This document shows, piece by piece, positions 1 to 20,744 of a stretch of DNA of 64,000 nt. Position numbers and translations under genes: made by a program. Each line of letters opens with the position of its first letter. The first letter of the stretch is position 1. Source of the stretch: Myxococcales bacterium (GTDB lineage: Bacteria > Myxococcota_A > Polyangia > Polyangiales > DASUME01); NCBI GenBank assembly GCA_047601445.1, contig JASGJH010000001.1, positions 4,128,001-4,192,000 on the forward strand, given 5' to 3'. The notes under the pieces were generated by a model. That model made no database searches. It was not told where the DNA came from and saw nothing but the letters and a program-made list of their open reading frames with translations.

Positions 1-158
1 TTGAGCGCGAACCGACGCTTGGTCCGCACGTGCTCGGCCACGAACACCAGACTGGAGCCACCCTGGCCGATCAAGGAGATCAAGCGATAGCGCTCCGAGA
101 GCACCCGACCGAGCAGCGCGGACACGGACACATCTCCGACCGTCGCCTCGCCAGTCAT
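1..158 (-). CDS. Ser/Thr protein kinase, N-terminal part (runs off window start)
   Basis: Manual translation from ATG at 158: MTGEATVGDVSVSALLGRVLSERYRLISLIGQGGSSLVFVAEHVRTKRRFAL(K). Contains the Gly-rich loop and ALK of Hanks kinases. The ATG overlaps the TGA of the upstream gene (ATGA). Not in the ORF track. Confidence 0.85.
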   Translation of the reverse strand, partial: MTGEATVGDVSVSALLGRVLSERYRLISLIGQGGSSLVFVAEHVRTKRRFAL

Positions 159-961
159 GGGCCGACCGAAGCTCGCGCAGGCGGTCGTTCGCCGAGGCGC
201 TCTCGGCAACGCGCTTCCAGCTCACGTACGCGCCCGCTCCAGTCGCGCGCGTCCAGCGCCTGGGGTAGCCAACTCGGAGCCTGAAGCTCTCCCGCCGGGA
301 CGACCAGGCCGAGCCAGTCACCGAGTCGCAACAGCTGATCTCCCCGCAACACGACCCCTTCACGAACGCGCTCCCCGTCGACATGGGTGCCGTTGGTGCT
401 GCCGAGATCGCGCAACACCAGGACAGGACCACGCAACGAGATCTCGGCGTGGACGCGAGAGACCTTCTCGTAGGGCAGCGACAACTCGCAGTCCGCCCCG
501 CGCCCGAGGCGTGTGAGCCCTGTGATCGCGAGCGAGGGACCCGCCGGCGGCCACAGCGTGATGATGCCGAGCGAATCGGCGCGCTCGAAGTCCGTTGGCA
601 GGGAGATCGCCGTGGTCGCGTCAGGCGTCACCGCCGCCGCCTGCAGCGGAGTCTCGAGCTTGGTCAACGGCGCCGTGAACTGATAGCCCCGGCCGTGCAA
701 GGTCCTCACGGCGTCCGCCCCGTCTTCGCCGAGAGAACGTCGCAGATCTTTGATCAGTCCGGGCAAGGAAGCGGGGCCGACCTGGAGTTCGCCCCAGAGC
801 GCTCGCTGCAGCTCCTCCTTGGCCACGTAGCGCTCCGAGCGGGACACGAGGTAGAGCAAGAGGTCCATCACCTTGGGCGCCAGGTGAACCTGCTCTCCGC
901 CGCGCGTGAGCCGTCGCGCCGAGACATCCAATACGTGATTCGAGAAAGCCCACTGGGTCAT
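155..961 (-). CDS. Winged-helix (OmpR/CadC-type Trans_reg_C) + FHA domain transcriptional regulator
   Basis: N-terminal wHTH (LAPKVMDLLLYL...ALW...IKDLRRSLG...RTLHGRGYQF). FHA motifs GR, SRVHA, DLGSTNGT. Confidence 0.9.
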   Translation of the reverse strand: MTQWAFSNHVLDVSARRLTRGGEQVHLAPKVMDLLLYLVSRSERYVAKEELQRALWGELQVGPASLPGLIKDLRRSLGEDGADAVRTLHGRGYQFTAPLTKLETPLQAAAVTPDATTAISLPTDFERADSLGIITLWPPAGPSLAITGLTRLGRGADCELSLPYEKVSRVHAEISLRGPVLVLRDLGSTNGTHVDGERVREGVVLRGDQLLRLGDWLGLVVPAGELQAPSWLPQALDARDWSGRVRELEARCRERLGERPPARASVGP

Positions 962-1203: not shown

Positions 1204-1879
1204 ATGAGCGTAGGTTGCTCGCACGTCGTGCTTGGCTCCGCCCTTTCCGTGTTCTTGTGCGGCGCCTGCGAACCGGCCGACGGTCTTGCCAGCGCGGACG
1301 CCGGCACACACGACGCCGACGCCGCGGCTTTCCCGCACCGGGACGCGGGCGCGGTGACCCTGTGGCCCCAAGAAGAGGAAGTCGATGCGCAAGCGCCGGG
1401 CCCGTGCGACTTCAGTTGTGGCTCACTGGCCCAGAAGGTGGACGTCCAGGGGACCTCTCCGTGGGGCGAGGTGGTGATCGATCAGAATCGGGGCTGGCTA
1501 CGTGACAGGGTTCACCAACCTGACGTACCTGTACCTGGAGGGAACCGTAGACGGCCAACCATTGCTGGTCACGCTCCTCCCTTACACCGACGATGTCGAG
1601 GACTTCGCGATCGGCCCGGGAACCTATACGGGCGGGGGCACCTACGTGGGGGCAAACGGCCGCGCTGTGCGCAGAAGCGGTAGCGATCAATGCGACGAGA
1701 CAACGCTCGATGAGGTCAAAGTCGTGGTGACCAAGCACGCCTACACCGCGGGCGACGATGGCTTCCAGACGGGAGATGTCGTCATGTTTCAGGGCAGCGT
1801 GGCGGTGCACGGCGGAGGATGGTCGCTCGAGCTGCCCTTTGACATCACCACCGCGTGCGTGGTTTCCGTCGACCTCTGA
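1204..1879 (+). pseudogene. Frameshifted putative lipoprotein (pseudogene or sequencing indel)
   Basis: The frame from 1204 has a lipoprotein-like signal (LSVFLCGAC). Removing one A at 1486-1487 joins it to the 1502..1879 frame (..VVIDQIGAGYVTGFTNL..). Confidence 0.6.
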
Positions 1880-1902: not shown

Positions 1903-2622
1903 ATGTCCGCCATCGTGATCCGTGACTATCGGCCAGAAGACCGGGCGGCGGTCCGCCGCATCTCCTTCGAGACTGGGATGCAGGGGCAATCCATCGCCCC
2001 CCAGTACGGCGACCTGGAGAGCTGGGCGGACATGTTCACCGGCTATTACACGGACCGTGAGCCCGAGAACGGCATCGTGGCGGAACTCGATGGTGAAGTG
2101 GTGGGCTACATGCTTTCGGCGCTCGACGAGCGGAGAGCCACCAATCCCATGCTCTATGCGCTCAAGCACGCCCTGCTGCGCGGTGCCTGCTTTCGACCCG
2201 ACACGGTGCGCTTCTACCTGCGCAGCGTGGTGGATACCTTCCGCGACCTCCTGGGGCCTCGCGCACCCAAGGTGGACTACGACCTGTACCCCTCGGGTCC
2301 CCACGTGAACCTGCTGCCGGCCGCGCGCCGCGCGGGCGTGGCCAAGGAGATGTTCTATCAGGTGTTCGATCGCGTCGTCGCGCGCGGCTCGACGGGAGCA
2401 CACGGACTGGTGCAGGCATCGAACCAAGCCATCATCGACCTCGCCACCAAGAAGCTCGGCTTTCAAATGGTCGGTGAGCCGTTCTTCGTTCCGGGCTTGC
2501 GCGGCGCGAACGGCGAACGCGTGGCGATCCGCATCTTGGGCCGACGACTCACCGATTGGAAGATCGGCGCCTGGAAGCAAGCCGACGCGCAGCCGAGTGG
2601 CACCATCATGAAAAGCTCATGA
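1903..2622 (+). CDS. GNAT family N-acyltransferase
   Basis: IRDYRPEDRAAV start, VAELDGEVVGY, HVNLLPAARRAGVA (acyl-CoA binding R/QxxGxA), N...KLGF. ATG at 1903 preceded by GAGG. Confidence 0.85.
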   Translation: MSAIVIRDYRPEDRAAVRRISFETGMQGQSIAPQYGDLESWADMFTGYYTDREPENGIVAELDGEVVGYMLSALDERRATNPMLYALKHALLRGACFRPDTVRFYLRSVVDTFRDLLGPRAPKVDYDLYPSGPHVNLLPAARRAGVAKEMFYQVFDRVVARGSTGAHGLVQASNQAIIDLATKKLGFQMVGEPFFVPGLRGANGERVAIRILGRRLTDWKIGAWKQADAQPSGTIMKSS

Positions 2623-2630
2623 AAATCTCC
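2604..2630 (+). promoter_or_regulatory. 11-bp-period direct repeat upstream of the biosynthetic operon
   Basis: TCATGAAAA at 2606 and at 2617 (exact 9-mer, period 11), about 90 bp before the ATG at 2715. Confidence 0.6.
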
Positions 2631-2714
2631 CGGCCGTTTTGGCAATTATCCCCATGTTTTTGGGGTGGCATGGTTTGACAGTTCCACGCGGAACGACGTA
2701 GTTCTAGGCCCGAC

Positions 2715-3857
2715 ATGGAACCGTCGGTCACGCAGCAGCAGCGCGTCAGAGCGGTGGCGGACTTCGCTCGCAAGCGCCTCTCCCCTGGCGCCAGCGAGCG
2801 TGAGAAGCACGGGCGCTTCGAGCGAAGCCTGTGGGACGAGGCGGCCGCCTTCGGACTCACGGGCTTACCGATCCCAACGCCGTGGGGAGGCAGTGGCCTC
2901 GACGCCGTGGAGACCATGCAGCTCGTGGAGTCCCTCGGCGAAAGCTGTGAGGACGGCGGCTTGGTATTCTCGCTGTGCGCTCACATGTTCGCATCGGCGG
3001 TGCCAATCTGGCGCTCGAACTCTCCGATCCATCAGCAGCGCTACTTGCGCGACCTCGCGAACGGAAAGCTCATTTGCGCCAACGCGGCCTCGGAGCCCGA
3101 CGCGGGGTCCGACGTGTATGCGATGAAGACCACGGCGACGCGCACCAGCTCGGGCTACGTGCTCGAAGGCACCAAGGTCTTCGTCACCAATGCGCCGATC
3201 GCCGACCTGTTCTTGATCTACGCCAGCACGAGTCCCTCGCGCGGGTACCTGGGAATCTCCGCGTTCCTCGTACCTCGCGATACGCCCGGGCTGCAGGTCG
3301 TTCCGGGTCCCACCAAGCACGGGCTAGGTAGCTCGCCCTGGGGCAGCATCTATTTGACCTCCTGCGATGTCCCGGAGGAAGCGCGCGTCGGGGCCGAAGG
3401 TGCCGGAGCGTCCTTCTTTCGTGAGTCGATGGTGTGGGAGCGAGGCTGCCTCTTCGCGTACTACGTCGGTGCCATGCAGCGGACACTCGATCGCTGCGTG
3501 GAGCACGCCCGGACACGCCGCCAGTTTGGCGAGGTGCTCGGGAAGTTCCAGTCGGTCGCCAATCGCATCGTCGACATGAAGCTCCGACTCGAGACCAGCC
3601 GGCTGCTCCTCTACAGGGCAGGCCAGTTGCACCGTGATGGCAAGCCCTGTGACGAGGCCATCGCGATGAGCAAGCTATGGATCTCCGAGTCCGCCGTGCA
3701 GGTCGGCCTGGATGCCGTGCAGATCTTTGGCGCATCCGGCATCACCCAGGAGCTGGGCATCGACGTCCTGCTCCGGGATGCCCTTCCATCGCGGATCTTC
3801 TCCGGGAGTTCGGAGGTCCAGCGCATGATCGTGGCCCGCACCCTGGGGCTGTCATGA
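2715..3857 (+). CDS. Acyl-CoA dehydrogenase family protein, L-prolyl-PCP dehydrogenase (PltE/RedW/PigA-like)
   Basis: ACAD motifs SEPDAGSD, GTKVFVTNA, RRQFG, QIFGASG. SMVWER and RIFSGSSE in place of IYEGT, as in prolyl-PCP oxidases. Adjacent to a Pro adenylation enzyme and PCP. Confidence 0.85.
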   Translation: MEPSVTQQQRVRAVADFARKRLSPGASEREKHGRFERSLWDEAAAFGLTGLPIPTPWGGSGLDAVETMQLVESLGESCEDGGLVFSLCAHMFASAVPIWRSNSPIHQQRYLRDLANGKLICANAASEPDAGSDVYAMKTTATRTSSGYVLEGTKVFVTNAPIADLFLIYASTSPSRGYLGISAFLVPRDTPGLQVVPGPTKHGLGSSPWGSIYLTSCDVPEEARVGAEGAGASFFRESMVWERGCLFAYYVGAMQRTLDRCVEHARTRRQFGEVLGKFQSVANRIVDMKLRLETSRLLLYRAGQLHRDGKPCDEAIAMSKLWISESAVQVGLDAVQIFGASGITQELGIDVLLRDALPSRIFSGSSEVQRMIVARTLGLS

Positions 3858-5482
3858 AGCGCCTCGAAGCGGTCTTGACATCGGCGTGCGCGACGGAGGC
3901 CGAGCTCATCGCCGTGGAGTGGGGCGAAGAGAAGCTGAGCTATCGCGCGCTCGATGAGCTCGCCAACCGCTTCGCGCACTGCCTGCTCGCAGCGGGTGTG
4001 CGAAGCGGCGATCGCGTGGGACTCCACGTTCCCCGTTCCGGTCGTTGCATCGCGGCCATGCTCGCTTGCTTGCGAATCGGCGCGGCCTACGTGCCGCTCG
4101 ATCCCAGCGCCCCCGCCAAGCGCACGCGCTGGATTGCCAGGGATTGCGCCCTGCGTGCGGTGGTCACCGTACCGCGTCTCTTGGGCACCTGGCTGGAAGC
4201 CGGGGAACATCAGCCACACTTGGTTCTAGTTGAGCACGACGGCGCGACCGACGCGGTCCAGCCCGCGGCGCTTGCAAGCCATGTGACGCGCTGGACCGAA
4301 GTGCTCGCCACCAGCGCAGATGCGCTTCCGCCTCGCCCGGGATCTCCCGACGAGCTCGCCTACATTCTCTATACGTCTGGCTCGACCGGCACCCCCAAAG
4401 GTGTGATGCTCTCGCACGAGAATGCCCTGGCGTTCGTCGAGTGGGCTGCAAGCCAGGCAGGGCTCGCGCGCGGCGAACGCGTGGCGAGCGTGGCGCCCTT
4501 TCACTTCGACCTCTCCGTGTTCGACATCTGGGCCACCCTGTCACGAGCGGGAACACTGATCATCATCGACGATGCCAGCGTGATCTCGGGCAACCGTATG
4601 CTCGATGCCATCCACGCGCGTGGGATCCAAGTCTGGTACTCGGTGCCTTCGGCGTTGGTGCTCTTGCTCGCGGGAGGACTCGAGGCACGCGGCGCTCCGT
4701 CGTTGCGCGTCGTGTTCTTCGCGGGCGAGGTGTTCCCCATCGCGGCGCTACGCCGCGTGATGGCCGCCTTGCCGGGGGCCAGGTTCTACAACCTGTTCGG
4801 CCCGACGGAGACCAACGTTTGCACGGCCTACCCGCTGGAAGTCATTCCCGAGGCTGATCTCCTCGCGATTCCGATCGGCCACCCCGCATGCGGCAATACG
4901 TGCAGCGTTCTCGATGACCACGGCTCCCCCCTGCCCCACGGCGAAGTCGGCGAACTCTACGTCGACGGTGCCACCGTGATGCTCGGCTATTGGCAGGACG
5001 GCTCCTGCAAGCCCGCCGAGCGCCCCTACCCCACCGGGGATCTAGTCTCTCAGCGCGCCGATGGCGCTTTCATGTACCACGGTAGACGCGATCATCAGCT
5101 CAAGGTCCATGGATTCCGCGTCGACCCTGCCGAAGTCGAGGCCGCGCTACACGCCCATCCGCTGATCCGCGAAGGCTTGGTCGTCGTGCTCGAGCAGCGG
5201 CTCGTCGCGCTGGTGGTGCCTGCCGACTCGCCGAGCGCGGGGACGCTACCGGACGGCATCTCGGTGATGGATGTCCGGCGGCACTGCGCCGCTCACCTGC
5301 CGCGCCACATGCTGCCAGCCGAGGTTCGATTCGTCAGCGATCTACCGCGGACTAGCACGGGCAAGCTCGATCGTTTGGGCGCGCGAGATGCCGTGGCGCG
5401 AGGCGCCTGGTGCGTCCTTGGGCAGCCCGCAGGGGCTCCACCGCGAACCGAAGTCACAGCACCTGAAGAGGCACGGACATGA
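3854..5482 (+). CDS. Stand-alone amino acid adenylation enzyme, L-proline-activating (PltF/RedM/PigI-like)
   Basis: Core motifs YTSGSTGTPKG, FDLS, NLFGPTE, TGDL, GRRDHQLK, TGKLD. Manually read specificity code DLFYFALVCK fits the DLxYxALVCK pattern of pyrrole-pathway Pro enzymes. ATGA overlap at 3854. Confidence 0.88.
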   Translation: MKRLEAVLTSACATEAELIAVEWGEEKLSYRALDELANRFAHCLLAAGVRSGDRVGLHVPRSGRCIAAMLACLRIGAAYVPLDPSAPAKRTRWIARDCALRAVVTVPRLLGTWLEAGEHQPHLVLVEHDGATDAVQPAALASHVTRWTEVLATSADALPPRPGSPDELAYILYTSGSTGTPKGVMLSHENALAFVEWAASQAGLARGERVASVAPFHFDLSVFDIWATLSRAGTLIIIDDASVISGNRMLDAIHARGIQVWYSVPSALVLLLAGGLEARGAPSLRVVFFAGEVFPIAALRRVMAALPGARFYNLFGPTETNVCTAYPLEVIPEADLLAIPIGHPACGNTCSVLDDHGSPLPHGEVGELYVDGATVMLGYWQDGSCKPAERPYPTGDLVSQRADGAFMYHGRRDHQLKVHGFRVDPAEVEAALHAHPLIREGLVVVLEQRLVALVVPADSPSAGTLPDGISVMDVRRHCAAHLPRHMLPAEVRFVSDLPRTSTGKLDRLGARDAVARGAWCVLGQPAGAPPRTEVTAPEEART

Positions 5483-5748
5483 GGGAAGTCGTCACGCAGG
5501 GCATTCGGGACTACATCGTGAACACCTGGTTAAGCGGCGACCCCCGTGGCTTCCATGACGATACCGACCTGCAGGAGACGGGGATCCTCGATTCGTTCTC
5601 GACCTTGGCGCTCGCCGCCTTCCTCGAAAAGACCTTCTCGACTCAACTCGAGCCCTCCGAGATCAACGGAGACACGTTTCGGAGCGTGCAGACGCTGACG
5701 CAGCTGGTGCTCGAGCGTCGAACCTCTTCCTTGGAGCAACGAACATGA
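5479..5748 (+). CDS. Peptidyl carrier protein (PltL/RedO/PigG-like)
   Basis: 89 aa, GILDSF phosphopantetheine motif, coupled to the adenylation gene. Confidence 0.85.
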   Translation: MREVVTQGIRDYIVNTWLSGDPRGFHDDTDLQETGILDSFSTLALAAFLEKTFSTQLEPSEINGDTFRSVQTLTQLVLERRTSSLEQRT

Positions 5749-6029
5749 GCTTGAATAGTATTGCAGTCGCGCCGACACCTCGTGACGGCCATCCCTCCTG
5801 GGAACCCGAGCTGCGAGAGATGGTCGCTCGCATCGCCGAGGTTCCAGCCACATTCGCGGCCGATGTGGACATGCGGGAAGAGCTCAACATGGACTCCATT
5901 CGCAGTGTCGAGCTCATGTTCGAGATCGAACAGCGCTTCACCCTCCTGGTCCCCGAGGAGCGCTACGCACAAGCGCGGAGCTTCGAAGACCTCTTGTCCC
6001 TGATTCGCTCGCTAAAGCAGGACACCTGA
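5745..6029 (+). CDS. Acyl carrier protein
   Basis: ELNMDSIRSVELMFEIEQRF: FAS/PKS-type ACP helix II with DS motif. Confidence 0.88.
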   Translation: MSLNSIAVAPTPRDGHPSWEPELREMVARIAEVPATFAADVDMREELNMDSIRSVELMFEIEQRFTLLVPEERYAQARSFEDLLSLIRSLKQDT

Positions 6030-6048
6030 GGCAAGGGCATCCGTGGCG

Positions 6049-7284
6049 ATGGCGTCCGTGCGTCGCGTTGCAATCACTGGCTGTGGTGTGGTCAGTGCCG
6101 CCGGTGCCGACCTGCGGTCATTTTGGGACGTGCTCGTGCAGGGCCGCAGCCTGATCCGTCCGCTGCGCGGCTTCGCCATCAAGGACCTGCCGAACTTGTA
6201 CGGTGCCGAGGTGGACTTTCCGGACGAGGGTCTCGGTGCCGACCGGGACAGCCGACGTCGGCGCTGTGCGCGTCTGCTCGGGCTCGCCGCGCGCCATGCC
6301 ACCCGTGACGCCAGGCTGTCCGAGAGCTGGTGCCATGCAGCCCGCATGGGCGTCGCCATGGGGACCACCCTCGGAGAGGAGGAGGAGCTCAATCATCTCC
6401 ATGACCGGGCTGCGGAGGTCGGTGCCCTGACGATCGACGCCACGTTTGCCAGCCGCGCCGACAACACGCGACTCGCGCTCGACGTCGCCCGGGATCACCA
6501 GCTACGGGGCCCCGTGCTGCTCAATGCGACCGCCTGTAGCTCGGGCAATGCAGCGACGGCTTGGGCCTACGATCTCGTGGCCTCGGGCGCCTGCGACGCC
6601 ATGCTCGCCGGCGGCGTGGACACCTTGACGCGGGTCACCTACTCGGGCTTCAGCCGCATGAATGCTCTCTCCAAGAGCGTGTGCAGACCGTTCGACGTGC
6701 GCCGAGATGGCGTCTCGTTTGGCGAGGGCGCCGGGGTCTTGGTGCTCGAGGAGATGGGACACGCCCAGCGGCGGGGAGCCCATGTGTACGCCGAACTGGC
6801 TGGCTACGGCATCGGCAACGATGCACATCACATCACGGCGCCCGAGCCGAACGGACGCGGCATGGCACGCGCGATTCGCGAAGCACTGACCACCACCGCA
6901 ACGTCGGTCGAAGCGATCGACTACGTGAGCGCGCACGGTACGGGCACGCCCTACAACGACGCGGCCGAGGAACGAGCCTTGAGGGCGGTATTCGGGGATC
7001 GCACGACAAGAACACCGGTGAGCTCGATCAAGGCCTCGCTGGGACACACCAACGGCGCAGCGAGTGCCCTGGAGAGCGTCGCGTGCGTGCTGGCGCTCGA
7101 GCACCAGCTGCTCCCACCCACGGCCAACCTCGAGCAGCCTGACCCGGCGTTCGCGCTCGACTTGGTGCGCACGCGCGCACGCGAAGCCCGCGTGAACACG
7201 TGCTTGAACCTCGCGGCCGGCTTCGGTGGCTTCAACGTGTGCCTGGTGCTCAAGAAGGCCCCTCAGGCAAAGGTGCGAGGTTGA
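6049..7284 (+). CDS. Beta-ketoacyl-ACP synthase (type II KS, active)
   Basis: Catalytic triad intact: TACSSG, HGTGT, GHTNG. Also RPFD...GEGAG and GFGG. Confidence 0.92.
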   Translation: MASVRRVAITGCGVVSAAGADLRSFWDVLVQGRSLIRPLRGFAIKDLPNLYGAEVDFPDEGLGADRDSRRRRCARLLGLAARHATRDARLSESWCHAARMGVAMGTTLGEEEELNHLHDRAAEVGALTIDATFASRADNTRLALDVARDHQLRGPVLLNATACSSGNAATAWAYDLVASGACDAMLAGGVDTLTRVTYSGFSRMNALSKSVCRPFDVRRDGVSFGEGAGVLVLEEMGHAQRRGAHVYAELAGYGIGNDAHHITAPEPNGRGMARAIREALTTTATSVEAIDYVSAHGTGTPYNDAAEERALRAVFGDRTTRTPVSSIKASLGHTNGAASALESVACVLALEHQLLPPTANLEQPDPAFALDLVRTRAREARVNTCLNLAAGFGGFNVCLVLKKAPQAKVRG

Positions 7285-8480
7285 TGTTCGACGAAGACGC
7301 GATCGTTATCACGGGTGTCGGCGTGCTCACGCCGCTCGGGAACACGTTCGCCGACGTGGGCGCCGCGTTGCGTCGAGATCACTGCAGCATCCTGCCATGC
7401 GCCCATGATCCCAGCATCGGCGAGTCCCTCATCTCGGACTTCGAGCCAACGCGCTATGCCGAGGTGCGCGGCATGCGCGTGTACAACCGCACCACCCAGC
7501 TCGCGATCTGCGCCGGACGCCGCGCGCTGCAGTCTGCGTACTGGCTCCGAGCCAGTCCTCCGCGCGAGCTCGGCGTCGTCATGGCATCGACATTCGGCCA
7601 TCTGGACACGCTCCTCGAATACGACGGGAGTCTGGCTCGCGCGGGGGTCAGGCGCACGAACCCCGCCCTCATGCCACTCTCGCTCGCCAGTGCCTCCGCG
7701 GCGGCCACCGCCCTGGCGTTGGAGGCCGAGGCCTGCGCCGTAACCTTGGCGGGGGACGCACCGGCGGCCCTCGATGCGTTGGCCCTCGCAGCTCGCTTAC
7801 TCGCGGTGGGTCGTGCGCGTGCATGCGTGGTGGTCGCGGCCTTTTCGCCGCTGCTCGCCCTGACGCAATCGGCCAGAGCGGCCGGTAAGCTCGCCTCGGC
7901 CGAGCAGTTCGTGGTGTTGGATCGATCCCATGCCGGCACCGTGTTCGGCGAAGCCGCGGTGGCCTTCGTGTTGGAACGCGACTCGATCGCCCGTACCAGC
8001 GGTGGTCGGCCCCTCGCTTCCCTACGCGGCCATGCCGCCGCGAATGCGCTCACCTCGGAACAGCGCGCGTCGGAGTTGCAGGCGACCTGCGATCGAGCGT
8101 TGCAACATGCGCGCGTTGCCCCAAGAGAGCTGGCCTTGGTGAGCGCAGGCTCCAACGGCACACCCGCTGGCGATGACGCCGAAGCGTTGGCGCTCAGGGC
8201 GTTGCTCGGCGAGGCCGCTGCGACCACCCCCATGTGCGCAGTCAAGGGCCACTGCGGCGAAGCCATGGAAGCGGGCGGCCTGCTGCAAGTCCTGCTGGCG
8301 CTATCCGTGCTCGAGAGCGGTTTTGCACCCGCGATTCGTCACCTCAAGGAGCCCTGCCGTGAGGGCCTGGGCTTCGTGAGCCGCACGGCTCAGGTCTCGC
8401 CTGGTCCCGTTCTCATCAGCGCGACGTCAGAGGCGGGACCTTGCTCCGCACTGGTCGTGGATCGACCCGTGCTGGTTTGA
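7284..8480 (+). CDS. Ketosynthase-like chain-length factor (inactive KS partner)
   Basis: KS fold (IVITGVGVLTPLG, FGEAAVAFVLE, VKGHCGE) but triad lost: GDAPAA, AGSNGT, GEAME. TGATG-coupled to the KS. Confidence 0.85.
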   Translation: MFDEDAIVITGVGVLTPLGNTFADVGAALRRDHCSILPCAHDPSIGESLISDFEPTRYAEVRGMRVYNRTTQLAICAGRRALQSAYWLRASPPRELGVVMASTFGHLDTLLEYDGSLARAGVRRTNPALMPLSLASASAAATALALEAEACAVTLAGDAPAALDALALAARLLAVGRARACVVVAAFSPLLALTQSARAAGKLASAEQFVVLDRSHAGTVFGEAAVAFVLERDSIARTSGGRPLASLRGHAAANALTSEQRASELQATCDRALQHARVAPRELALVSAGSNGTPAGDDAEALALRALLGEAAATTPMCAVKGHCGEAMEAGGLLQVLLALSVLESGFAPAIRHLKEPCREGLGFVSRTAQVSPGPVLISATSEAGPCSALVVDRPVLV

Positions 8481-11400
8481 GGAAGCGCTGTGACCTCCCT
8501 CGTCTCGCTATGTGCCGCAGCCAACGCTTCCACTCGGCGAGCCGCGGGATCCTTGGCGGCCAAGCGCTGATACTGAGCGAACAGCGTGGGGTGCTGCGTG
8601 TTGCGGACCCACTTCTCCATGGCCGACAGATGCGTCGAGTACGCCGGGCGGTCACTCATCTGAAGCGCGAGCTCCGCGCGAGCCCCGTGACTGAGCCCGT
8701 GCAGCATGGGATTGTCGTGGGCTTCTTGCTTGGCGAGTAGCGTGTCGAGCAGGTCGCGTGCACGCTCGAGTTCTCCCAGCGCCAGATGCGCCAGCGGCAG
8801 CTCGAGTTCCACCGCGAAGGTCATCATCGTGAACGCGGCGTCCTCCGTGCGTAGCCCCGCCAGGGCTCGCTCGCATACACACCGTGCTTGGGCTGCTTTG
8901 CCCGCCTTGCGGAGGATGCGCGCGTAGGCCCCGAGGTACTGGACCTCGCGCGTAGTCAGCGCCGAGCCCGCAATCGACTCGAAGAAACCGCCGTAACGAG
9001 CCAGCGCCTCGTGCGGCAAGCCACGCTCGGACAGGTAGCAAGCGTGGGTCACGTCGCGCAGTCGTGCCACGGAGGGCACTTCATTGGCGATCGCCTGGAT
9101 CTGCTGGGCGGCCCGCTTGAGAGCCACCACGTCTTCACACAGCGTGAGACTATTCCAGAGCAGACGCGGCACCTGCATGTCATGACGCCAGACCGCGTTG
9201 GTCTCGGCGGCCAGCTGGTCGAGCTCCTCGACGTGGCGCAGGAACTCGACACGCTCGCCGCGGTGGCCGTGATAGGCGACCAACATCGTGGAGCGGGTCT
9301 GGCGCGAGGTGAAGGTACTGAGACGCTCGATGGAGCCTAGGTGCTCTTTCACGGCGTCGTCGGTGCGTGTGGCGTCGAGCGCGCCCAGCATGACCAGGAT
9401 GCCGGCCTCGAGCTGGTTGCGGGCGTCCGGCGGGATCGCTTGAGCAGCCGGAGAGCATACGTACGTGAGCGCCCGCCGTGCCAGCTCGCGCGCGGCGCCA
9501 AACTCTCCATTCGCAAGGTGGATCAACGAGCGCTGAAACTCGTGGATTTTGTAGACGCGGTGGCGCTTGGGGAAATACGCCAACATCGAGAGCTGCTCGC
9601 CGATCTTGGCGGCTCCCTCCTCGTCCTGGAAGACCGTGCACACGCTGAGCACGGCCGTCCCGATGCCGATCAGGCCGAGTAGCACCGTGCGGAAGCTGGT
9701 GGCGCCCTGACGCCGTCCCGGCACGAGCATATAGGCCACAAAGGCCAAGCTCATGCACAGCCACAGAGCAAAACGGCCCCCCAAGAAGCGTGCGACACGG
9801 CGCGCGGCCTTGAGCCCGGCGAGCTCTTCGAACACGTCCATGAGCTCGCCGCCGTAGCGAAACGTCAGGCGGAAATCGACGTAGGCTCCCGCCAGCGTCA
9901 GCGCCGGGAGCAGGGGCGTATAGGAGTACCGATGCAGCCCGAGCGCCTTGTGGGTCTCCACCGCGGCTTCCAGATCGGGCGCGGCCTGAGCCAGCATGTC
10001 ACCGCGGATGGTCAGCTCCACCGCCGCCGTGCGTAGCACCTTTCGACCCGTTGCGACCTGGCCAGCGCGCATCAAGTGCAGCCCCATGCTGATCGCACGT
10101 ACGAGCTGCGGAGTGGACACACGGTCCAGTTGATTCGCCTCCACGGCCGCCGCGGCGTCCGGGTCTGCGTCTCGGATGGCCTGGGCGAGCTCACGGTGCA
10201 GGACCGTGCGCTGCATCGAGTCGATCGCGCCGAGCAGCTCACGTCGCACCGCTGCCTGCGCCACGCGATAGCCCTCGGGTGTGTCCACGATAAGCTGTGC
10301 AGTGATCAGCTGCTGCAGAGCTTGGCGCACGCGGCCGTCCTCCGCGCCCGCAGCCAGAGCCTGGCAGATCCCCTCATTCACGGTTCCACCGTGGAGGGCC
10401 AGGGCTCGCGCCAGCCGCTGAGCCAGCGCAGGGAGCGTTTGAATCCTGTCGGCCAGTGCACTCTCGGAGAGCTCATCTGGGGCTTCGTCGGTCAGCGCAG
10501 CCGGTAGAGTCCAGGTGCCCCCGACATCCCGGATCACGGAGCGCGCGAGCAGCTGCTTGAGCAGGCGCATCGTCTGGCCCGGATTGCCGCGTCCATGACT
10601 GAGCAGCCATTGCGCGAGGCGCACGCGGTGGGGCACATCGCCGAAGATGGAGTGCAACAGCTCGTTCACCGCAGCTTCCGGAAGCGTGCTCAGGAGCAAC
10701 GAATCTCCCATGAATGCGAGCTGCTCCACACCGGGCGGTGCGCGTCGCGCCAGGCTACGGCCCACGCTCAAGAGGAGAGGGGCACGCCGCGCGGCCTGAC
10801 CGAGCAGGGTGAACACCAGGGCCGATTCCGGCGGCACGAGGTGGGCATCGTCGATCGCGACGAGGAGAGGTCTCCGCCGTGCCACATCGGCCATCCACTC
10901 CGCGACGGCCTCCTGTTCCGCCAGGGAACGACTCAAGGCTTCGACCGGCTCGTGCGCAGGCTTGGCGGGGGTTGGCTCCGCTTTCGGATCGCCCTCGCCC
11001 AACAGTGACGCCAGCCGCGCCCGATAGGGAGCGATGCACGCACGGGCATCATCTGGAGCGACCGACAAGACCGCGCGCACGAGCCTCGCCAACAAGGAAC
11101 TGCGCTCGGCACTGGGATCGCCCGAGATCAGGACGGTGCGGAGACCCTCGAGGCGCGCCTCGATGGACAACTCGCTCAGTAGTCGCGAGCGGCCCATGCC
11201 CGGATCGCCCAGCACGGTGACGACATCCCCCTTGCCTCGCAAAGTGCTCTCGCAAAGCTGAAGGAGCGCGCGCTGCTCCGCTTTGCGCCCGACCAACACG
11301 CCCGCAGCGAGCCGGCTCTCCGCGATGTTGAGCAAGAGGCCGTCGTCGAGCTGACCGATGGCGCTCAGGCGGTCGATGACGTCGGCCGCGCTCGCAGCCC

Positions 11401-12160
11401 GTCCGAGGGGATCGATGCAGAGCAGCGACTGCACGAGCTCGTTCAGGGCTTCGGGGATCTCCGGGTTGAAGTGGGAGAGCGGGAGTGGAGGCGTAACCCA
11501 AGCCTGCTCGGCGTCTCTCATGCTCCTGATCGCATAGGGCTTCGAGCGCGTGAGGGCCCAGTACATCACCACGCCCAACGAAAACAGATCCGTGCGCGCG
11601 TCGAGGGCGCGGCCTCGCAGCGTCTCCGGAGCAATGCAACTCGGTGTGCCCATCAGCTCATTCGCCACGCCAAAAGGCGAGAGCGCACCGAAGTCCAGGA
11701 GTTTGGCATGGCCGTGCTCGTCGAGCCGCACGTTCCGCGGGTTCACGTCGCGGTGAATCATCCGCTGGTTGTGGAGCAGCGCGAGGGTCGTGCACACGTC
11801 GCGGAGGTAGCGGCACACTTCGCGCCAAGGTAGGGGCGCGAGGTCCCACAGGTCCCGGCCGCCGAGTAACTCCATCGTGTAGTAGCGCTTGCCGTCGTCG
11901 GTGTGGCCGAAGTCGTAAACGGAGATCACGCGCGGGTGGTCGAGCTTGGCGAGCGTCTCGTACTCACGCTCGAAGAGCCCCACGACGCGAGCATCGTGAC
12001 GGCTCATGAGCTTGAGCGCGACGACCCGATTGCAGCCCTCATCGAGGGCGCGATAGACCGCCCCCATGCCACCTCGCCCGAGCTCGGCTTCGATGCGGTA
12101 GCGGCCCGCGATGCGCATGGGAACGTTGGTGCTCAGCAGGGCTGGCGGCGAGCTCTTCAT
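8390..12160 (-). CDS. Ser/Thr kinase fused to P-loop ATPase (AAA_16/STAND-like) and helical repeat region
   Basis: GRGGMG, ALK, HRDVNPRN, DFG, APE. Walker A GDPGMGRS, Walker B VAIDDAH. Long Ala/Leu-rich helical C-terminal half. Confidence 0.9.
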   Translation of the reverse strand: MKSSPPALLSTNVPMRIAGRYRIEAELGRGGMGAVYRALDEGCNRVVALKLMSRHDARVVGLFEREYETLAKLDHPRVISVYDFGHTDDGKRYYTMELLGGRDLWDLAPLPWREVCRYLRDVCTTLALLHNQRMIHRDVNPRNVRLDEHGHAKLLDFGALSPFGVANELMGTPSCIAPETLRGRALDARTDLFSLGVVMYWALTRSKPYAIRSMRDAEQAWVTPPLPLSHFNPEIPEALNELVQSLLCIDPLGRAASAADVIDRLSAIGQLDDGLLLNIAESRLAAGVLVGRKAEQRALLQLCESTLRGKGDVVTVLGDPGMGRSRLLSELSIEARLEGLRTVLISGDPSAERSSLLARLVRAVLSVAPDDARACIAPYRARLASLLGEGDPKAEPTPAKPAHEPVEALSRSLAEQEAVAEWMADVARRRPLLVAIDDAHLVPPESALVFTLLGQAARRAPLLLSVGRSLARRAPPGVEQLAFMGDSLLLSTLPEAAVNELLHSIFGDVPHRVRLAQWLLSHGRGNPGQTMRLLKQLLARSVIRDVGGTWTLPAALTDEAPDELSESALADRIQTLPALAQRLARALALHGGTVNEGICQALAAGAEDGRVRQALQQLITAQLIVDTPEGYRVAQAAVRRELLGAIDSMQRTVLHRELAQAIRDADPDAAAAVEANQLDRVSTPQLVRAISMGLHLMRAGQVATGRKVLRTAAVELTIRGDMLAQAAPDLEAAVETHKALGLHRYSYTPLLPALTLAGAYVDFRLTFRYGGELMDVFEELAGLKAARRVARFLGGRFALWLCMSLAFVAYMLVPGRRQGATSFRTVLLGLIGIGTAVLSVCTVFQDEEGAAKIGEQLSMLAYFPKRHRVYKIHEFQRSLIHLANGEFGAARELARRALTYVCSPAAQAIPPDARNQLEAGILVMLGALDATRTDDAVKEHLGSIERLSTFTSRQTRSTMLVAYHGHRGERVEFLRHVEELDQLAAETNAVWRHDMQVPRLLWNSLTLCEDVVALKRAAQQIQAIANEVPSVARLRDVTHACYLSERGLPHEALARYGGFFESIAGSALTTREVQYLGAYARILRKAGKAAQARCVCERALAGLRTEDAAFTMMTFAVELELPLAHLALGELERARDLLDTLLAKQEAHDNPMLHGLSHGARAELALQMSDRPAYSTHLSAMEKWVRNTQHPTLFAQYQRLAAKDPAARRVEALAAAHSETREVTALPQTSTGRSTTSAEQGPASDVALMRTGPGET

Positions 12161-15574: not shown

Positions 15575-16419
15575 GTGACTGACTCGCAGGCTGCGTAGTA
15601 CTCCCCGCGCAGCCGAACTCGTTCGGGAATCTTCAAGGCTCTGGGCGTGTACCAGGGCGTGTACGTGCGCACGAGCTTGGGCCAGAACCCAAGCAACGCG
15701 TCGCGCAGGAAACGTGCGTTGCGGGCCAACCTTGCGGCTCCTGCCTCTGCCGCGAGCCGCTCTCGTTGGTCCGCGTGCACGAGCCGCGTCGCACGAAAAA
15801 CGAAGCGACCGAAGTGAAGCTGCGCGAACGCGCCTGCCTTTAACCGGAAAACGTACCCCTTACCGAGCGCTTGGTACGCATCGAAGGCGACCGTTCGGTG
15901 CTCCAACTCCTCCACCAAGTGCCACTCGAATAGCTCGCGCACCGCGGGATCGACCTGTTCAATCCAACCAATCTCGAGGAGAAACAACGCCATCGCGGTC
16001 GTGAACGCCTCGAAGCTTTCGGCGTAGGCGAGGTTAAATGGCATACCGCGCTCACCCGCAAAGCGCCGATAGTCGACCCCGAGCTGTGCTCGCAGCGCGG
16101 CGAGTGGCGGCGAGTGCGGGAGATTGAGCGCCTTGTTGAAGCGAGCGTGCCCCCGCGCATGCTGAGCCTCCTGAGCGCTGAAGCGCCGCATGTCCTCCCT
16201 CAGACGCTCGCTCGCAACCTGTGGAGCGGCCGTGCGCATCGTGCGAATCAGGTAAGGCTCGAGCTCTGCGAACAGGTACGACAGCGCGACGGCGAGGCAG
16301 GATAGCTCGGGCTCGCCCTTGACCAGCATGGCATCGACTTCAGCGGGTAGCTGCAGGTGAAAACTCCTTACCCGGATCTCGTCGACTCGACTCGGTGTCA
16401 TGGATTGTTTCCTCATCAT
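15571..16419 (-). CDS. Predicted metal-dependent hydrolase family protein (ferritin-like diiron motifs)
   Basis: FAELE, QEAQH, ESFEAFT, WHLVEELEHRTVAFD. Overlaps both neighbours. Alternative start at 16401. Confidence 0.8.
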   Translation of the reverse strand: MMRKQSMTPSRVDEIRVRSFHLQLPAEVDAMLVKGEPELSCLAVALSYLFAELEPYLIRTMRTAAPQVASERLREDMRRFSAQEAQHARGHARFNKALNLPHSPPLAALRAQLGVDYRRFAGERGMPFNLAYAESFEAFTTAMALFLLEIGWIEQVDPAVRELFEWHLVEELEHRTVAFDAYQALGKGYVFRLKAGAFAQLHFGRFVFRATRLVHADQRERLAAEAGAARLARNARFLRDALLGFWPKLVRTYTPWYTPRALKIPERVRLRGEYYAACESVT

Positions 16420-19400
16420 CAAGCCCCCAGACGTTCTCGTCCCCGCGTCGTCAGCGCGTGCCTGAGCTCGCTCGCAAGTCGCGCTACTTCGTTTGGGTCT
16501 AGTGGCCGATGGAAGTGTCCGCTTTCGACCAGCACGGCTGCTCCCACGTAGCCCTCTTCGTCGCGCAACGGTATTAGCCGATGCAGTGTTCTCCCGAGCA
16601 ACAGACTCTCCGTCGGTCGGCCTTCCTCATTTACGGCGCGCCCGGCCTGCTCGACCCACCAGCCGATCGGCAACGGCGGTGAATCCTTGCCAGACCTTGC
16701 CAGAAGCCGCATTCCGTTCGGGCCCTTTTGAAACAGGTAGGCGGTGTCCGCGGCGCCTGCCGCATGGACCAGCACCGCTAGCACACGCTCGGCACACTCC
16801 GCGAGCGAACGGCTCTCGGTGAGCATCTCCTGCACGGTCACGTGCGAGCCCAACCCCACCACGCCGCTATCCGGCGGTCGCCCGGACACCTCGCGCGTTC
16901 TTCCTTCCTCGAACAGGCGCTCACAGCGCTGGATGAGCCCAGGAATAGCCGTTGGTACGTACCAACCACGCATGGCGCGGGCGTGCTCCTCGTACGCAGC
17001 GCGATCCCCTGCCTGCAGGGCCACCTGGGCGCGCGCCTCGTGAAGGGCGCCGAGCGTGAGCGGGTTCTCGTTGTGCTCGAAGCGTGTCAGATAGGACTGC
17101 AATTGCTCTGCCGCCAATTGCGTGTTGCCGAGCCCGGCCTCGGCCAGCGCGAGTTGAATGGGCAGGTCCCAGTTGTGCGCGGTAAAATCGAGGTCTTCCT
17201 GAGCGATACGCCCGATGGCCGAGAGGCAAACCTCCTTGGCCCGCGCGTGCTGCCGCAACTCATTGTGGGCCCTGGCGCGCACTGCTTGCATGCGTGTCCA
17301 GCCGGTCAGCAAGAGCGGCTCCTCTTCGTCTGGCTCGAGCTCGTGCAGCGCATCCTCGGGCCTGCCGCGCCACAGCAAGTAGGACGCATAGGCGCGGTGT
17401 GCAGAGCACGCCATGGTGGGGATGTCCCGGCTCAGCCGCTGCAGCTCTTCCCAGGCGCGCTTGAGGCCGAGCACGTCGTTGGTCCTCATGCTGATCGCGA
17501 TGTTGCTGGCCGGCGCCAAGGTCTCCGCCTGCCACGCCGAGCCCTTACGAATCGCGTGTTCCTCGACACGCCGGGCGTACTCGTCGGCCAGCGCGAGCTT
17601 CCCGCGATGCGAGTAATGGAGCGTCCGTAGCCGGTCGGCGAACAAGCCGTAGAGCTGCCCGTGCGTCTGCTCGAGCTCGTCGGCGAACGCGAGCACATGG
17701 GAGTCGTCGCGGTACGACTCGAGGACACCGAAGGAGTAGGGAGCGCTGGCCAGAAGCTCGATGCGAGTAGGTTCGTCCATTCCACGTATCGGGCCCCGCT
17801 TGAGCCGCTCGATCAGCCTGAGCCCACGCATCCAGGTTTCATATGGGCGGTCCTGAACAATCGCAGCCGTGGCCATGCAGTACTCGTGAACCAAGCTCGT
17901 CACGTGGTTGCGGCCGAGCCCGGCGAGCGGCTCCAGAACGCGCGCACAGCGCATGGCGCCTTGGGGGTCGTGGCAGATGCAGCAACTCGCCGTCAGTCCG
18001 GCCATGACCTGAAACGGAAGGCGCACCGCTTCGCGAAAGCTCGGCACCAGCGGGTTGCGGCGTTGGCGGACGAATTCGAGACCTGCGTACAGCAGTCCCA
18101 GAACCACCGCCACCTTCTTGCCGAGCCAGGGACGCAGCTTGCGGATCGTGTCGAGCCTCAGGCACTCGGAGAGCCTGTCGATCGTCTCGTCGCCATAGCG
18201 CTTCACCAGTCGCCGATCCACGTAGAAGCCGGCGATCGAGAGGCAGACGAGCGGGATGAGCATCTCATGACTGCTGCGACCGGCACTGCGAAACTCGAGC
18301 AACGCGGCTTCCAGCGCGGGTGCCGCTGCGGTGTAGCTGTCGGCCCCCTTGATTTGCGTGCATGCTCGCACGACGCACTCACCGCCGCGTCCAGCCTGAC
18401 CGCCACGCATGAGGTGAAGCCCGGCAGCCAAAAGCTCCAGGTGAACGGGCTCTTTGCGTCTCAGCAGCACGTCTCCGAAGCGAGCGTGGGCACGCTGCTT
18501 CTCGGCTCTGGAGAGCTCGCCCGCGAGGGTCTCGCGCAACTCTTCGTGGGTGAATCGGTAGCCCTGCGGGGACCCCTCCAAGATGCCCTCGCGCGTCAAC
18601 CCATCCGCCGCAGAGAACGCTGCGCCATGGGGCCCATCGAACACCGCGGTGCACGCCTCGAGCGGAATGACACCAGCGTGAACGCTCAGCATTTTTCCGA
18701 GGCTTCGCTCCGAGGGCGTCAGACGCTCGAGTCGGCTCTTGAGGACGTCGAAGCGGGTCGCTGGAAGCGAGATGCTCGAGACGTCGTATGGGATGACCCA
18801 CATGCCCTCGACGAAGCGGATCACGTCCGTGCGGACGAGGTAGTCGCAGAGCTCGAGCACGTGAGCAGGGTTGCCCAATGAGACGCCGTACAGGCGCGCA
18901 GCCAGGCGGGCGAGGTGTGGAACCTCCCCGAACACCGAGGAAAGAAGTTGATCTATGTCGCCGGAGCTCAGCGCGCTCAGGCCAAAACGCGTGGCCCTTT
19001 GCGCAAAGAGCTGGGCCACCGAGCTCGCATCTCGATGAGCCAGCGGCGACGCCGTCGCGAGCACGATGAGATCGCAGCGCTCGGCTTCGATGGCGAGCGA
19101 CGTCAGCCAGGCCAGCGACGGCTCGTCGACCGCGTCGAGGTCATCGACGAACAGGGCGAGCGGCTGCTGAGAGGCAACTGCAGCGAACCAGTCGTGCAGA
19201 GCCGTCTGCAGGAGAATGCGACTCTCGCGAGCATGGAGCACGGCGGGCGCAACCGCGTCACCACCCAGCCTCATGCGCAGTCTCTCGGACAGATTCGAGA
19301 GTACGTGCGCATGCGGTTTGGCCGCCGCCAAAGCCGTCTCGGGCAGCGCGTCGAGGAGCAGGGTGCCCAGCGCGGTCGCGGCCCCGTACACCCCCTCGTG

Positions 19401-20462: not shown

Positions 20463-20744
20463 GGGTCCCCCGCGCGGGTGCAAGCGCAACCCGTTGGCTC
20501 TTCGGGTACTCTCCCGCAAAGGGCTGGAATTGGCCACTCATCGCACTCGGTTGGGTTCCCGCGCTGGCGCCCGGGTCCGCGCGTCACCGCGCGCGTTCCG
20601 TCAGCCTTGGTCAGCCGCAGCTGTTCCGTAGCCACGGAGCGCACGCTTGCACTCGGCCCGGCCCGCACGGCCTTGGCAGCCGCGTGAGGCCCGATCGTTC
20701 TTGATTCGGCTACGGCGTGGTCGGATCCGCGGAGCGACCTTCCG

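Follow-up and report, generated by a model that had tools for sequence, protein, structure and literature searches.

A proline-to-pyrrole enzyme trio beside a ketosynthase/chain-length-factor pair in uncultured Myxococcota: a candidate pyrrole-primed type II polyketide system

The enzyme trios PigA/PigI/PigG, RedW/RedM/RedO and PltE/PltF/PltL make a carrier-bound pyrrole from proline and feed it to PigJ and PigH, to a modular type I polyketide synthase (PKS) or to a halogenase. The question raised by the locus considered here is what becomes of the pyrrole when genes for such a trio stand instead beside a dissociated acyl carrier protein (ACP), ketosynthase (KS) and chain-length factor (CLF), in a family that adds a ketoreductase (KR). 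The locus lies in a stretch of 64,000 nucleotides from a Myxococcales bacterium, here called the window (positions 4,128,001-4,192,000 of C1, the single 9.5 Mb contig of genome G000). The original prediction, made from the letters of the DNA alone, had described six co-oriented and mostly overlapping genes that combine a pyrrole-2-carbonyl starter module with a minimal type II PKS. That description of the genes stands: six intact open reading frames (ORFs) span 2715-8480 on the plus strand, four of the five junctions overlap (spacings of -4, -4, -4, +13 and -1), and Pfam places the products in the expected classes, one acyl-CoA dehydrogenase, one AMP-binding protein, two PP-binding proteins and two ketoacyl-synthases (Table 1). 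The GC content of the block (0.666) is the same as that of the genome (0.663). We think it probable, at roughly 60%, that a pyrrolyl group on the peptidyl carrier protein (PCP) primes a reducing type II PKS, which extends it to a short pyrrolyl-acyl chain that an acyltransferase then takes over; the priming, chain length, acceptor and product are ones that we infer.

The first half of this proposal is the better anchored. The dehydrogenase scores 562.8 bits against the NCBIfam PigA equivalog model, passing its cut-off of 500, and 423 bits against the RedW model, failing its cut-off of 650; in a tree it groups with PigA-type proteins and not with the generic acyl-CoA dehydrogenase of G000. Alignment A3 gives the adenylation code as DLFYFALVCK, exactly as first read, and seven of the eight positions of its inner part, LFYFALVC, match the consensus for stand-alone proline enzymes, L(L/F)YLALVC, given in the accessible text of PMC3874040. 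The best single-domain match of this enzyme in the PDB is 6O6E, an L-proline--[L-prolyl-carrier protein] ligase (348 bits). The two carriers are also as predicted, with a GILDS motif on the PCP, an MDS motif on the second ACP (VDS being the family form) and matches to Pfam and fatty acid synthase (FAS)-type ACP models. Across 30 sequences the PCP has no deviation at family-conserved columns, and the second ACP forms a separate ortholog cluster of 29. The likeness to the Pig, Red and Plt trios therefore comprises the PigA cut-off, a proline-type code, a PltF-type structural match and a dedicated PCP. This strong homology suggests that the trio makes pyrrolyl-2-carboxyl-S-PCP from L-proline, the chemistry that the accessible sections of PMC6667630 describe for PigI, PigG and PigA. 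The predicted link between a proline-to-pyrrole trio and a dissociated ACP with KS and CLF is supported.

The six-gene order recurs well beyond the window. We examined 51 stretches: 43 loci found in a search with the dehydrogenase, the window, a second cassette in the same genome (L044) and six metagenome loci, these being the ones out of 80 that had at least 44% identity. The full core is present in 31 of them, comprising 26 of the 43 loci, the window, L044 and three of the six metagenome loci, so the gene set is beyond chance. Of the remaining loci from the dehydrogenase search, four are cut by contig ends and 13 are without the cassette; the latter come from Massilia, Hahella, Zooshikella, Methylosinus, Kitasatospora and others, and several have prodiginine-type neighbours. 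The Methylosinus locus (L036:1274-11149) holds PigH-, PigI-, PigJ- and PigA-like genes and represents a prodiginine-type cluster in a methanotroph. The nearest related loci are from Polyangiales/Myxococcales-type metagenome assemblies, and almost every carrier is either a metagenome contig or an assembly of an uncultured, Myxococcota-type organism. The CLF marks the cassette sharply: when four candidates were scored in each of 400 other genomes of the phylum, one reached 644 bits, duplicating a locus already in the set, and the rest scored no more than 194. Four of 40 relatives carry the CLF, three of these four being among nine genomes of the same genus, and a plasmid collection gave no match. 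A further 65 CLF homologs and 10 clusters come from metagenomes or metagenome-assembled genomes wherever a source or name is shown, and none is named as a characterised enzyme. As far as seen, the cassette is thus rare, patchy and confined to uncultured lineages.

The ketosynthase pair was predicted to consist of an active and an inactive partner, and the residues agree. The KS has the catalytic C165, H298 and H335, as do all 24 aligned KSs of the family, and the CLF has none of the three triad residues. The predicted structure of the CLF is a thiolase/FabF fold (pLDDT 89) whose fold-search matches are FabF proteins. In profile scores, the best PDB match of both proteins is 9S5H, chain B for the KS (444 bits) and chain C for the CLF (235 bits); this entry is not among the fold-search matches listed. 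The next matches are FabF entries (369 and 186 bits, respectively); the ishigamide KS (6KXD) follows at 348 bits, and the Act KS and Act CLF are at 318 and 160.5 bits. We take 9S5H to be the amxFabF2/amxFabFmut KS/CLF-like heterodimer of anammox bacteria. The main text on that heterodimer, as far as accessible (bioRxiv 10.64898/2026.05.19.726425), names no code 9S5H; the identification is drawn because ten residues that it names (Ala110, Ala164, Cys165, Phe203, Ser296, Ala297, His298, His335, Met337 and Glu344) land on chain B with a constant offset of five by hand count, Ile112 falling one place off. A model of the KS with the CLF scored 0.95 against 0.02 for the best control, with a contact agreement of at least 96% between runs and a partner pLDDT of at least 91. 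Of 157 solved pairs 116 reach this mark, and of 215 mismatched ones 2. Because structures of similar complexes are available, the model is read as likeness only and not as binding, and in that sense the CLF is the predicted partner of the KS.

The lining of the acyl tunnel may report on the starter unit. According to the accessible text of 10.64898/2026.05.19.726425, the tunnel residues Ile112/113 and Met337 of the anammox KS are hydrophobic. All 24 family KSs have Glu113 and Asn337 at these positions, which are hydrophobic in the FabF-like KS of G000 and in the KS of another of its clusters (L045). The invariant polar pair would fit a pocket for a polar, NH-bearing heteroaryl starter. On the CLF side, the gates of the anammox protein, given as Phe135 and Val139 in the same partial source, correspond to Met130 (23 of 23) and Ile/Leu134 in the family, and such bulky gates would fit a short chain.

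A KS/CLF phylogeny, suggested along with the prediction as a means of placing the pair, put the cassette KS and the cassette CLF each in a clade of its own with support of 100, apart from the PigJ-like protein of L036, the aryl-polyene-like enzymes of a further G000 cluster (L046) and FabF; this was a small, quick tree that took in no characterised Iga, Ape or Aua sequence and in which the PigJ rows are long branches. Eight fused two-domain KS-CLF proteins of about 800 residues (P0028, P0032, P0035, P0038, P0039, P0046, P0063 and P0070) are related to the cassette pair and fall outside its clades. The tree also bears on whether the block might belong to a split prodiginine or tambjamine pathway to the bipyrrole MBC, with KS and CLF standing in for PigJ and a distant oxoamine synthase for PigH. 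The dehydrogenase does pass the PigA model, three BioF-like genes are present in G000, and the prodigiosin route, in the accessible part of PMC6667630, extends pyrrolyl-PCP once by a KS. Against this, the KS scores 99.7 bits where the PigJ model has its cut-off at 900, and in the tree it stands apart from the PigJ-like protein of L036, albeit on long branches, and PigJ and RedX are fused KS didomains whereas the cassette has two separate genes. No oxoamine synthase of the PigH type was found at any of the 29 loci with sequence beyond the CLF, which are those with room to judge neighbours; matches in G000 to a PigH-like query cover the PLP domain only, and orthologs of PigD, PigE and PigB/C were not found in that genome. 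A KR would, moreover, remove the beta-keto group that PigH needs. With separate KS and CLF genes and no PigH/RedN or PigC-type ortholog in G000, we regard this pathway as largely refuted and very improbable indeed, in keeping with the earlier view that the system is not of the prodiginine type.

What the family carries beyond the six genes changes the picture of a minimal PKS. A FabG-type KR is present at 26 of the 29 loci and a CurA/PTGR-like NADPH reductase at 18; a hexapeptide (EpsC/WcaF-like) acyltransferase occurs anywhere in the fetched locus at 18. Less frequent are GNAT-like proteins, GT2 glycosyltransferases and B12 radical S-adenosylmethionine (SAM) enzymes (5/29 each) and phosphopantetheinyl transferases (PPTases; 3/29). 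Counting hexapeptide, GNAT-like and nonribosomal peptide synthetase (NRPS) genes together, a candidate acyltransferase lies near 24 of the 29. The idea of a minimal system borrowing FabG from the host thus did not hold, since the family has its own KR, usually a CurA-like reductase and a variable acyltransferase. For the same reason the pyrrolyl beta-keto or pyrone product first proposed becomes the less likely outcome, the family KR of G000 sitting at a separate locus. L002 has the full set of nine in one place, its operon carrying the KR and hexapeptide genes in the interval that separates ACP from KS. One His is near-invariant among the hexapeptide proteins. LpxA and LpxD show that this fold can use acyl-ACP, but the proteins of the family resemble acetyl-CoA enzymes, so that any role in chain transfer is tentative. 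L015 and L019 continue into a module of condensation, adenylation, PCP and thioesterase (TE) domains and L025 into an adenylation-PCP-TE module, which suggests that these variants may make pyrrolyl-acyl amino acids. Their NRPS genes lie directly downstream of the KR (L015:8359-12354, L019:16452-20324 and L025:17561-20134). Linked NRPS genes were counted for these three loci only, the flag at L022 being an opposite-strand gene and that at L020 being left unused. At L005, L018, L020, L027, L030 and L085 a B12-binding radical SAM gene lies upstream of the dehydrogenase; its product is a candidate for C-methylation of the pyrrole, a step known from aminocoumarin pathways.

Taken together with the starter trio, these genes allow a route to be proposed. 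The adenylation enzyme would load L-proline on the PCP, and the flavin dehydrogenase would oxidise it to pyrrolyl-2-carboxyl-S-PCP. The pyrrolyl group would then pass to Cys165 of the KS, and the KS/CLF heterodimer would condense it with malonyl on the second ACP, with loading presumably supplied by FabD and PPTase of the host; G000 holds FabD, FabZ-type and one PPTase gene. The dedicated FabG-type enzyme would reduce the beta-keto group. Because no dehydratase is linked, water would be lost through host FabZ or by spontaneous, azafulvenium-type elimination, a carbinol adjacent to pyrrole C2 being known to eliminate easily. The CurA-like NADPH reductase could optionally saturate the resulting double bond and, after one to a few malonyl rounds, the acyltransferase of the locus, be it hexapeptide, GNAT-like or an NRPS module, would pass the chain to its acceptor. 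In G000 the cluster would be split, with the six core genes in the window and the KR, reductase and hexapeptide acyltransferase acting in trans from a satellite locus.

The same genes could instead form two parallel arms that meet only in the final product, one in which an acyltransferase moves pyrrole-2-carbonyl from the PCP to an acceptor and one in which KS/CLF, ACP and KR build a separate chain. There are precedents for both arms: undecylprodigiosin has a fatty chain that RedP, RedQ and RedR build independently of its pyrrole, and enzymes of aminocoumarin pathways pass the pyrrolyl group on directly. The frequent candidate acyltransferase (24/29) would suit such a transfer and, from what is accessible of 10.64898/2026.05.19.726425, the closest KS/CLF of solved structure can decarboxylate malonyl-ACP to begin a chain. 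A fatty chain, however, is a poorer fit than a heteroaryl starter to the invariant Glu113 and Asn337, and at no locus of sufficient length were the six genes seen apart, while the acyltransferase varies. We therefore consider two separate arms unlikely.

The split proposed for G000 rests on a comparison of loci. Beside the window copy there is no KR, CurA-like reductase or hexapeptide gene, and the predicted lack of halogenase, KR, dehydratase, acyltransferase, TE and PigH-type genes held for the 14 ORFs scanned (window 155-20537). The satellite, at L162:8719-11476 (G000:C1:6,027,719-6,030,476), lies 1.9 Mb from the window and has no core genes; its hexapeptide and KR genes run in one direction and the reductase diverges from them (hexapeptide <- KR <- and -> reductase). 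Family hidden Markov models each find one in-family match in G000, and all three are at the satellite: 413.6 bits for the KR (members 414-460), 573.1 for the reductase (517-652) and 239.1 for the hexapeptide protein (213-307), the next-best KR and reductase of the genome scoring 256 and 310. The catalytic Ser, Tyr and Lys of the satellite KR are intact. In trees, L002 is the partner of the satellite for both the reductase (support 100/99) and the KR (95/95); a distant L046 KR sits on a long branch beside the satellite KR, and only the grouping of L002 with the satellite was used. The satellite proteins share 69% (KR), 76% (reductase) and 65% (hexapeptide protein) identity with those of L002, their nearest match among the loci of that comparison. 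From the window, the dehydrogenase, KS and CLF likewise pair with L002 (support 96, 98 and 99), and the window dehydrogenase, ACP, KS and CLF are nearest to it (75, 56, 66 and 55%), the adenylation enzyme and PCP not. The loci without a KR are the window, L044 and L004, and both genomes concerned, G000 and G401, hold a family KR elsewhere; as the same satellite occurs in both, it predates their split. The reductase is found in trans in three of the five genomes whose locus lacks one.

Either cassette of G000, or both, may draw on the satellite. The second, L044 (8681-15023; G000:C1 ~7,211,680-7,218,022, minus strand), lies 3.1 Mb from the window; it is without a KR, has a hexapeptide gene of its own downstream of the CLF and is nearest to L004 (dehydrogenase 88%). 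In this assembly the L044 adenylation gene is shifted out of frame by one base, possibly through a sequencing error. Two further clusters were seen in this genome. L045:7074-14013 (C1 ~3.207-3.214 Mb) has a fatty acyl-AMP ligase and two ACPs facing a KS, CLF and oxoamine synthase, and possibly makes an amino-ketone lipid; its KS is the sister group of the cassette KS in the quick tree. L046:7020-12558 (C1 ~0.214-0.220 Mb) is aryl-polyene/flexirubin-like, with two KSs, a KR, a FabZ-like dehydratase and a flavin-dependent enzyme, and its dehydratase is a further candidate for action in trans.

If no satellite served it, the window copy would be a minimal, non-reducing system releasing a pyrrolyl beta-keto acid, methyl ketone or pyrone. 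The absence of the three accessory genes from its surroundings would agree with this, and the window KS departs from the family at three tunnel-side positions (R114E, Q115E and H142T), so that the product may have changed. In the accessible text of PMC10295502, the myxobacterial aurachin KS/CLF also makes two unreduced extensions of an aryl starter. We nevertheless judge such a system quite unlikely: the KR is general in the family (26/29), G000 keeps an intact family KR, and no TE or cyclase is linked to the window copy among the 14 ORFs scanned.

Several observations weigh against a pyrrole-primed, reducing system in the window. No hexapeptide, GNAT-like or NRPS gene lies nearby at 5 of the 29 loci, the window included. 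No dehydratase was found at any of the 29 by tblastn with one distant query, nor in a Pfam scan of 81 of the 128 listed neighbours, so that a polyene or enoyl step is one that we infer. The satellite is closer to its counterpart in G401 (74, 81 and 71% for KR, reductase and hexapeptide protein) than to L002, and since the G401 cassette, L004, is of the L044 type, it may serve the L044 copy; the KR of the G401 satellite aligns in two pieces, being frameshifted in that assembly. In two of the five genomes whose locus lacks the reductase, none was found. Moreover, the window copy is itself divergent, with 23 changes at conserved columns of the adenylation enzyme (median 4; the highest of 28) and 15 in the CLF (median 5). 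With the three KS changes, the divergent adenylation enzyme allows for a changed product or slow decay.

Decay in its stronger form would make the window copy a degenerating duplicate, with L044 and the satellite as the working system. The count of adenylation-enzyme changes would fit, as would branches about twice as long as those of L002 for the dehydrogenase (0.33 against 0.16) and CLF (0.74 against 0.35). All six frames are open, though, with catalytic residues and coupled junctions intact and a promoter-like box kept, and the adenylation-gene frameshift sits in the L044 copy and not in that of the window. The ratio of nonsynonymous to synonymous substitution (dN/dS) against L002 is 0.12-0.30, which also counts against decay, but with dS at 1.4-1.9, near saturation, it says little on recent decay. 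On balance we find a decaying duplicate improbable.

The box in question is a TTGACA that starts 40 nt upstream of the dehydrogenase gene. Of 31 sequences upstream of dehydrogenase genes, 10, among them that of the window, have a TTGAC(A/G) starting 32-40 nt ahead of the start codon, and the candidate promoter would imply a near-leaderless transcript beginning just before the dehydrogenase. No family-wide operator was found in these regions, the only recurrent element being the TTGACA box. Window 2619-2680 and the satellite (L162 ~10,300-10,356, minus strand) share ATGAAAAT, followed 40-60 nt further on by GTTTGACA. This pattern occurs in the genome only at these two promoters; having been built from them, it gives only a weak hint of common origin or control.

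Table 1. Features of the cassette region, in window positions
Feature	Position	Strand	Basis
L-prolyl-PCP dehydrogenase, PigA/RedW/PltE type, 380 aa	2715..3857	+	NCBIfam PigA equivalog
Stand-alone proline adenylation enzyme, PigI/RedM/PltF type, 542 aa	3854..5482	+	Code, PDB 6O6E
Peptidyl carrier protein, GILDS motif, 89 aa; presumed prolyl/pyrrolyl carrier	5479..5748	+	Pfam PP-binding
Acyl carrier protein, 94 aa; presumed malonyl/chain carrier	5745..6029	+	PP-binding, FAS-type ACP models
Active ketosynthase, 413 aa, GTG start (ATG at 6049 possible)	6043..7284	+	C165/H298/H335; 9S5H chain B
Chain-length-factor-like inactive ketosynthase, 398 aa	7284..8480	+	Triad-less; 9S5H chain C
GNAT acetyltransferase	1903..2622	+	Pfam GNAT, Atlas
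Candidate sigma-70-type promoter, TTGACA 2675-2680, weak -10 ~2698-2704	2675..2704	+	Upstream comparison

The GNAT acetyltransferase upstream of the block is probably a bystander and possibly a recruited release enzyme. Its family has five copies in G000 and is multi-copy in the genus. As a conserved member of the cassette it was rejected, having no homolog at any of the 43 related loci and, in the two genomes of the genus whose copies are closest, lying on other contigs than the cassette. Also in the window are a winged-helix/FHA regulator (155-961, minus strand), upstream of the cassette, and two large Ser/Thr kinase-AAA proteins (8390-12160 and 16419-20537, minus strand), the gene for the first of which overlaps the 3' end of the CLF gene by 91 bp, head to head; none of the three is conserved next to the cassette at other loci. 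At 1204-1879 (plus strand) a lipoprotein-like N-terminus (from 1204) and an ORF (1502-1879) resemble one gene with a frameshift at ~1490-1500 and, taken with the L044 frameshift, this hints at indel errors in the assembly.

How, then, does the cassette relate to systems already described? It shares with highly reducing type II PKSs an active KS, a triad-less CLF (the heterodimer being modelled, as likeness only), a free ACP and a dedicated KR, found at 26 of the 29 loci and in trans in G000, outside the window. Highly reducing clusters also carry a dehydratase, and none dedicated to the cassette was found among the 81 neighbours or by the one-query tblastn. The pairing of an active KS with a triad-less partner is likewise common to the anammox pair (9S5H, if our identification is right) and to ishigamide (6KXD), from which the cassette differs in its own KS and CLF clades, polar tunnel residues, genes for a proline-derived starter and no linked dehydratase found. 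Aromatic type II PKSs are more distant, with Act scores below those of 9S5H and no cyclase family among the scanned neighbours. Aryl polyene and flexirubin systems extend an aromatic starter with a type II set that includes a KR and hand the chain to an acceptor, as we propose here; the cassette is without an ApeR-type second active KS or a dehydratase, and the L046 enzymes branch elsewhere in a tree without characterised Ape sequences. Among pyrrolyl polyenes and acrylamides, rumbrin is reportedly made by extending a proline-derived pyrrole with malonate units, as are DKxanthene and pyrronazol, but these rely on multidomain type I PKSs with built-in KR and dehydratase domains, whereas the cassette is dissociated. 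By analogy, the nearest myxobacterial precedent for the logic of a starter-primed type II PKS may be aurachin in Stigmatella, for which the accessible text of PMC10295502 describes a dissociated ACP, KS and CLF (AuaB/C/D/E), an N-bearing aromatic starter, a short chain and remote loci. There, anthranilate enters via a CoA ligase on a single ACP; here, the pyrrole would be made on its own PCP, with KR and reductase linked.

All parts of the system come from known families, and it is their pairing that appears undescribed. In line with the earlier statement that the locus matches no described pathway, we found no description of a pyrrole starter with a type II KS/CLF, a weak negative as subscription journals were mostly outside the search. 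Bolder, and on the evidence rather doubtful, is the idea that the type II PKS runs with no dehydratase at all, water being expelled after each reduction through the pyrrole ring itself, and that the resulting pyrrolyl-enoyl or pyrrolyl-polyene chain is attached by the hexapeptide acyltransferase to a glycan or lipid of the cell surface. We raise it because the KR is common (26/29) and no dehydratase was found at the same 29 loci, the EpsC/WcaF-like enzyme is coupled to the KR, and GT2 glycosyltransferases occur at five loci. If true, uncultured Myxococcota would decorate their surface with a pyrrole analogue of the aryl polyenes.

With six to nine genes the system is small, and so lends itself to reconstitution in vitro or in a laboratory host, where it would serve as a test case for a KS/CLF that takes its starter from a peptidyl carrier and for a reducing type II PKS without its own dehydratase. 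Should priming by pyrrolyl-PCP prove right, a PCP-made pyrrole starter and a distinct KS/CLF clade would be added to type II polyketide chemistry, and the cassette would point to an unseen class of metabolites in uncultured, myxobacteria-like lineages.

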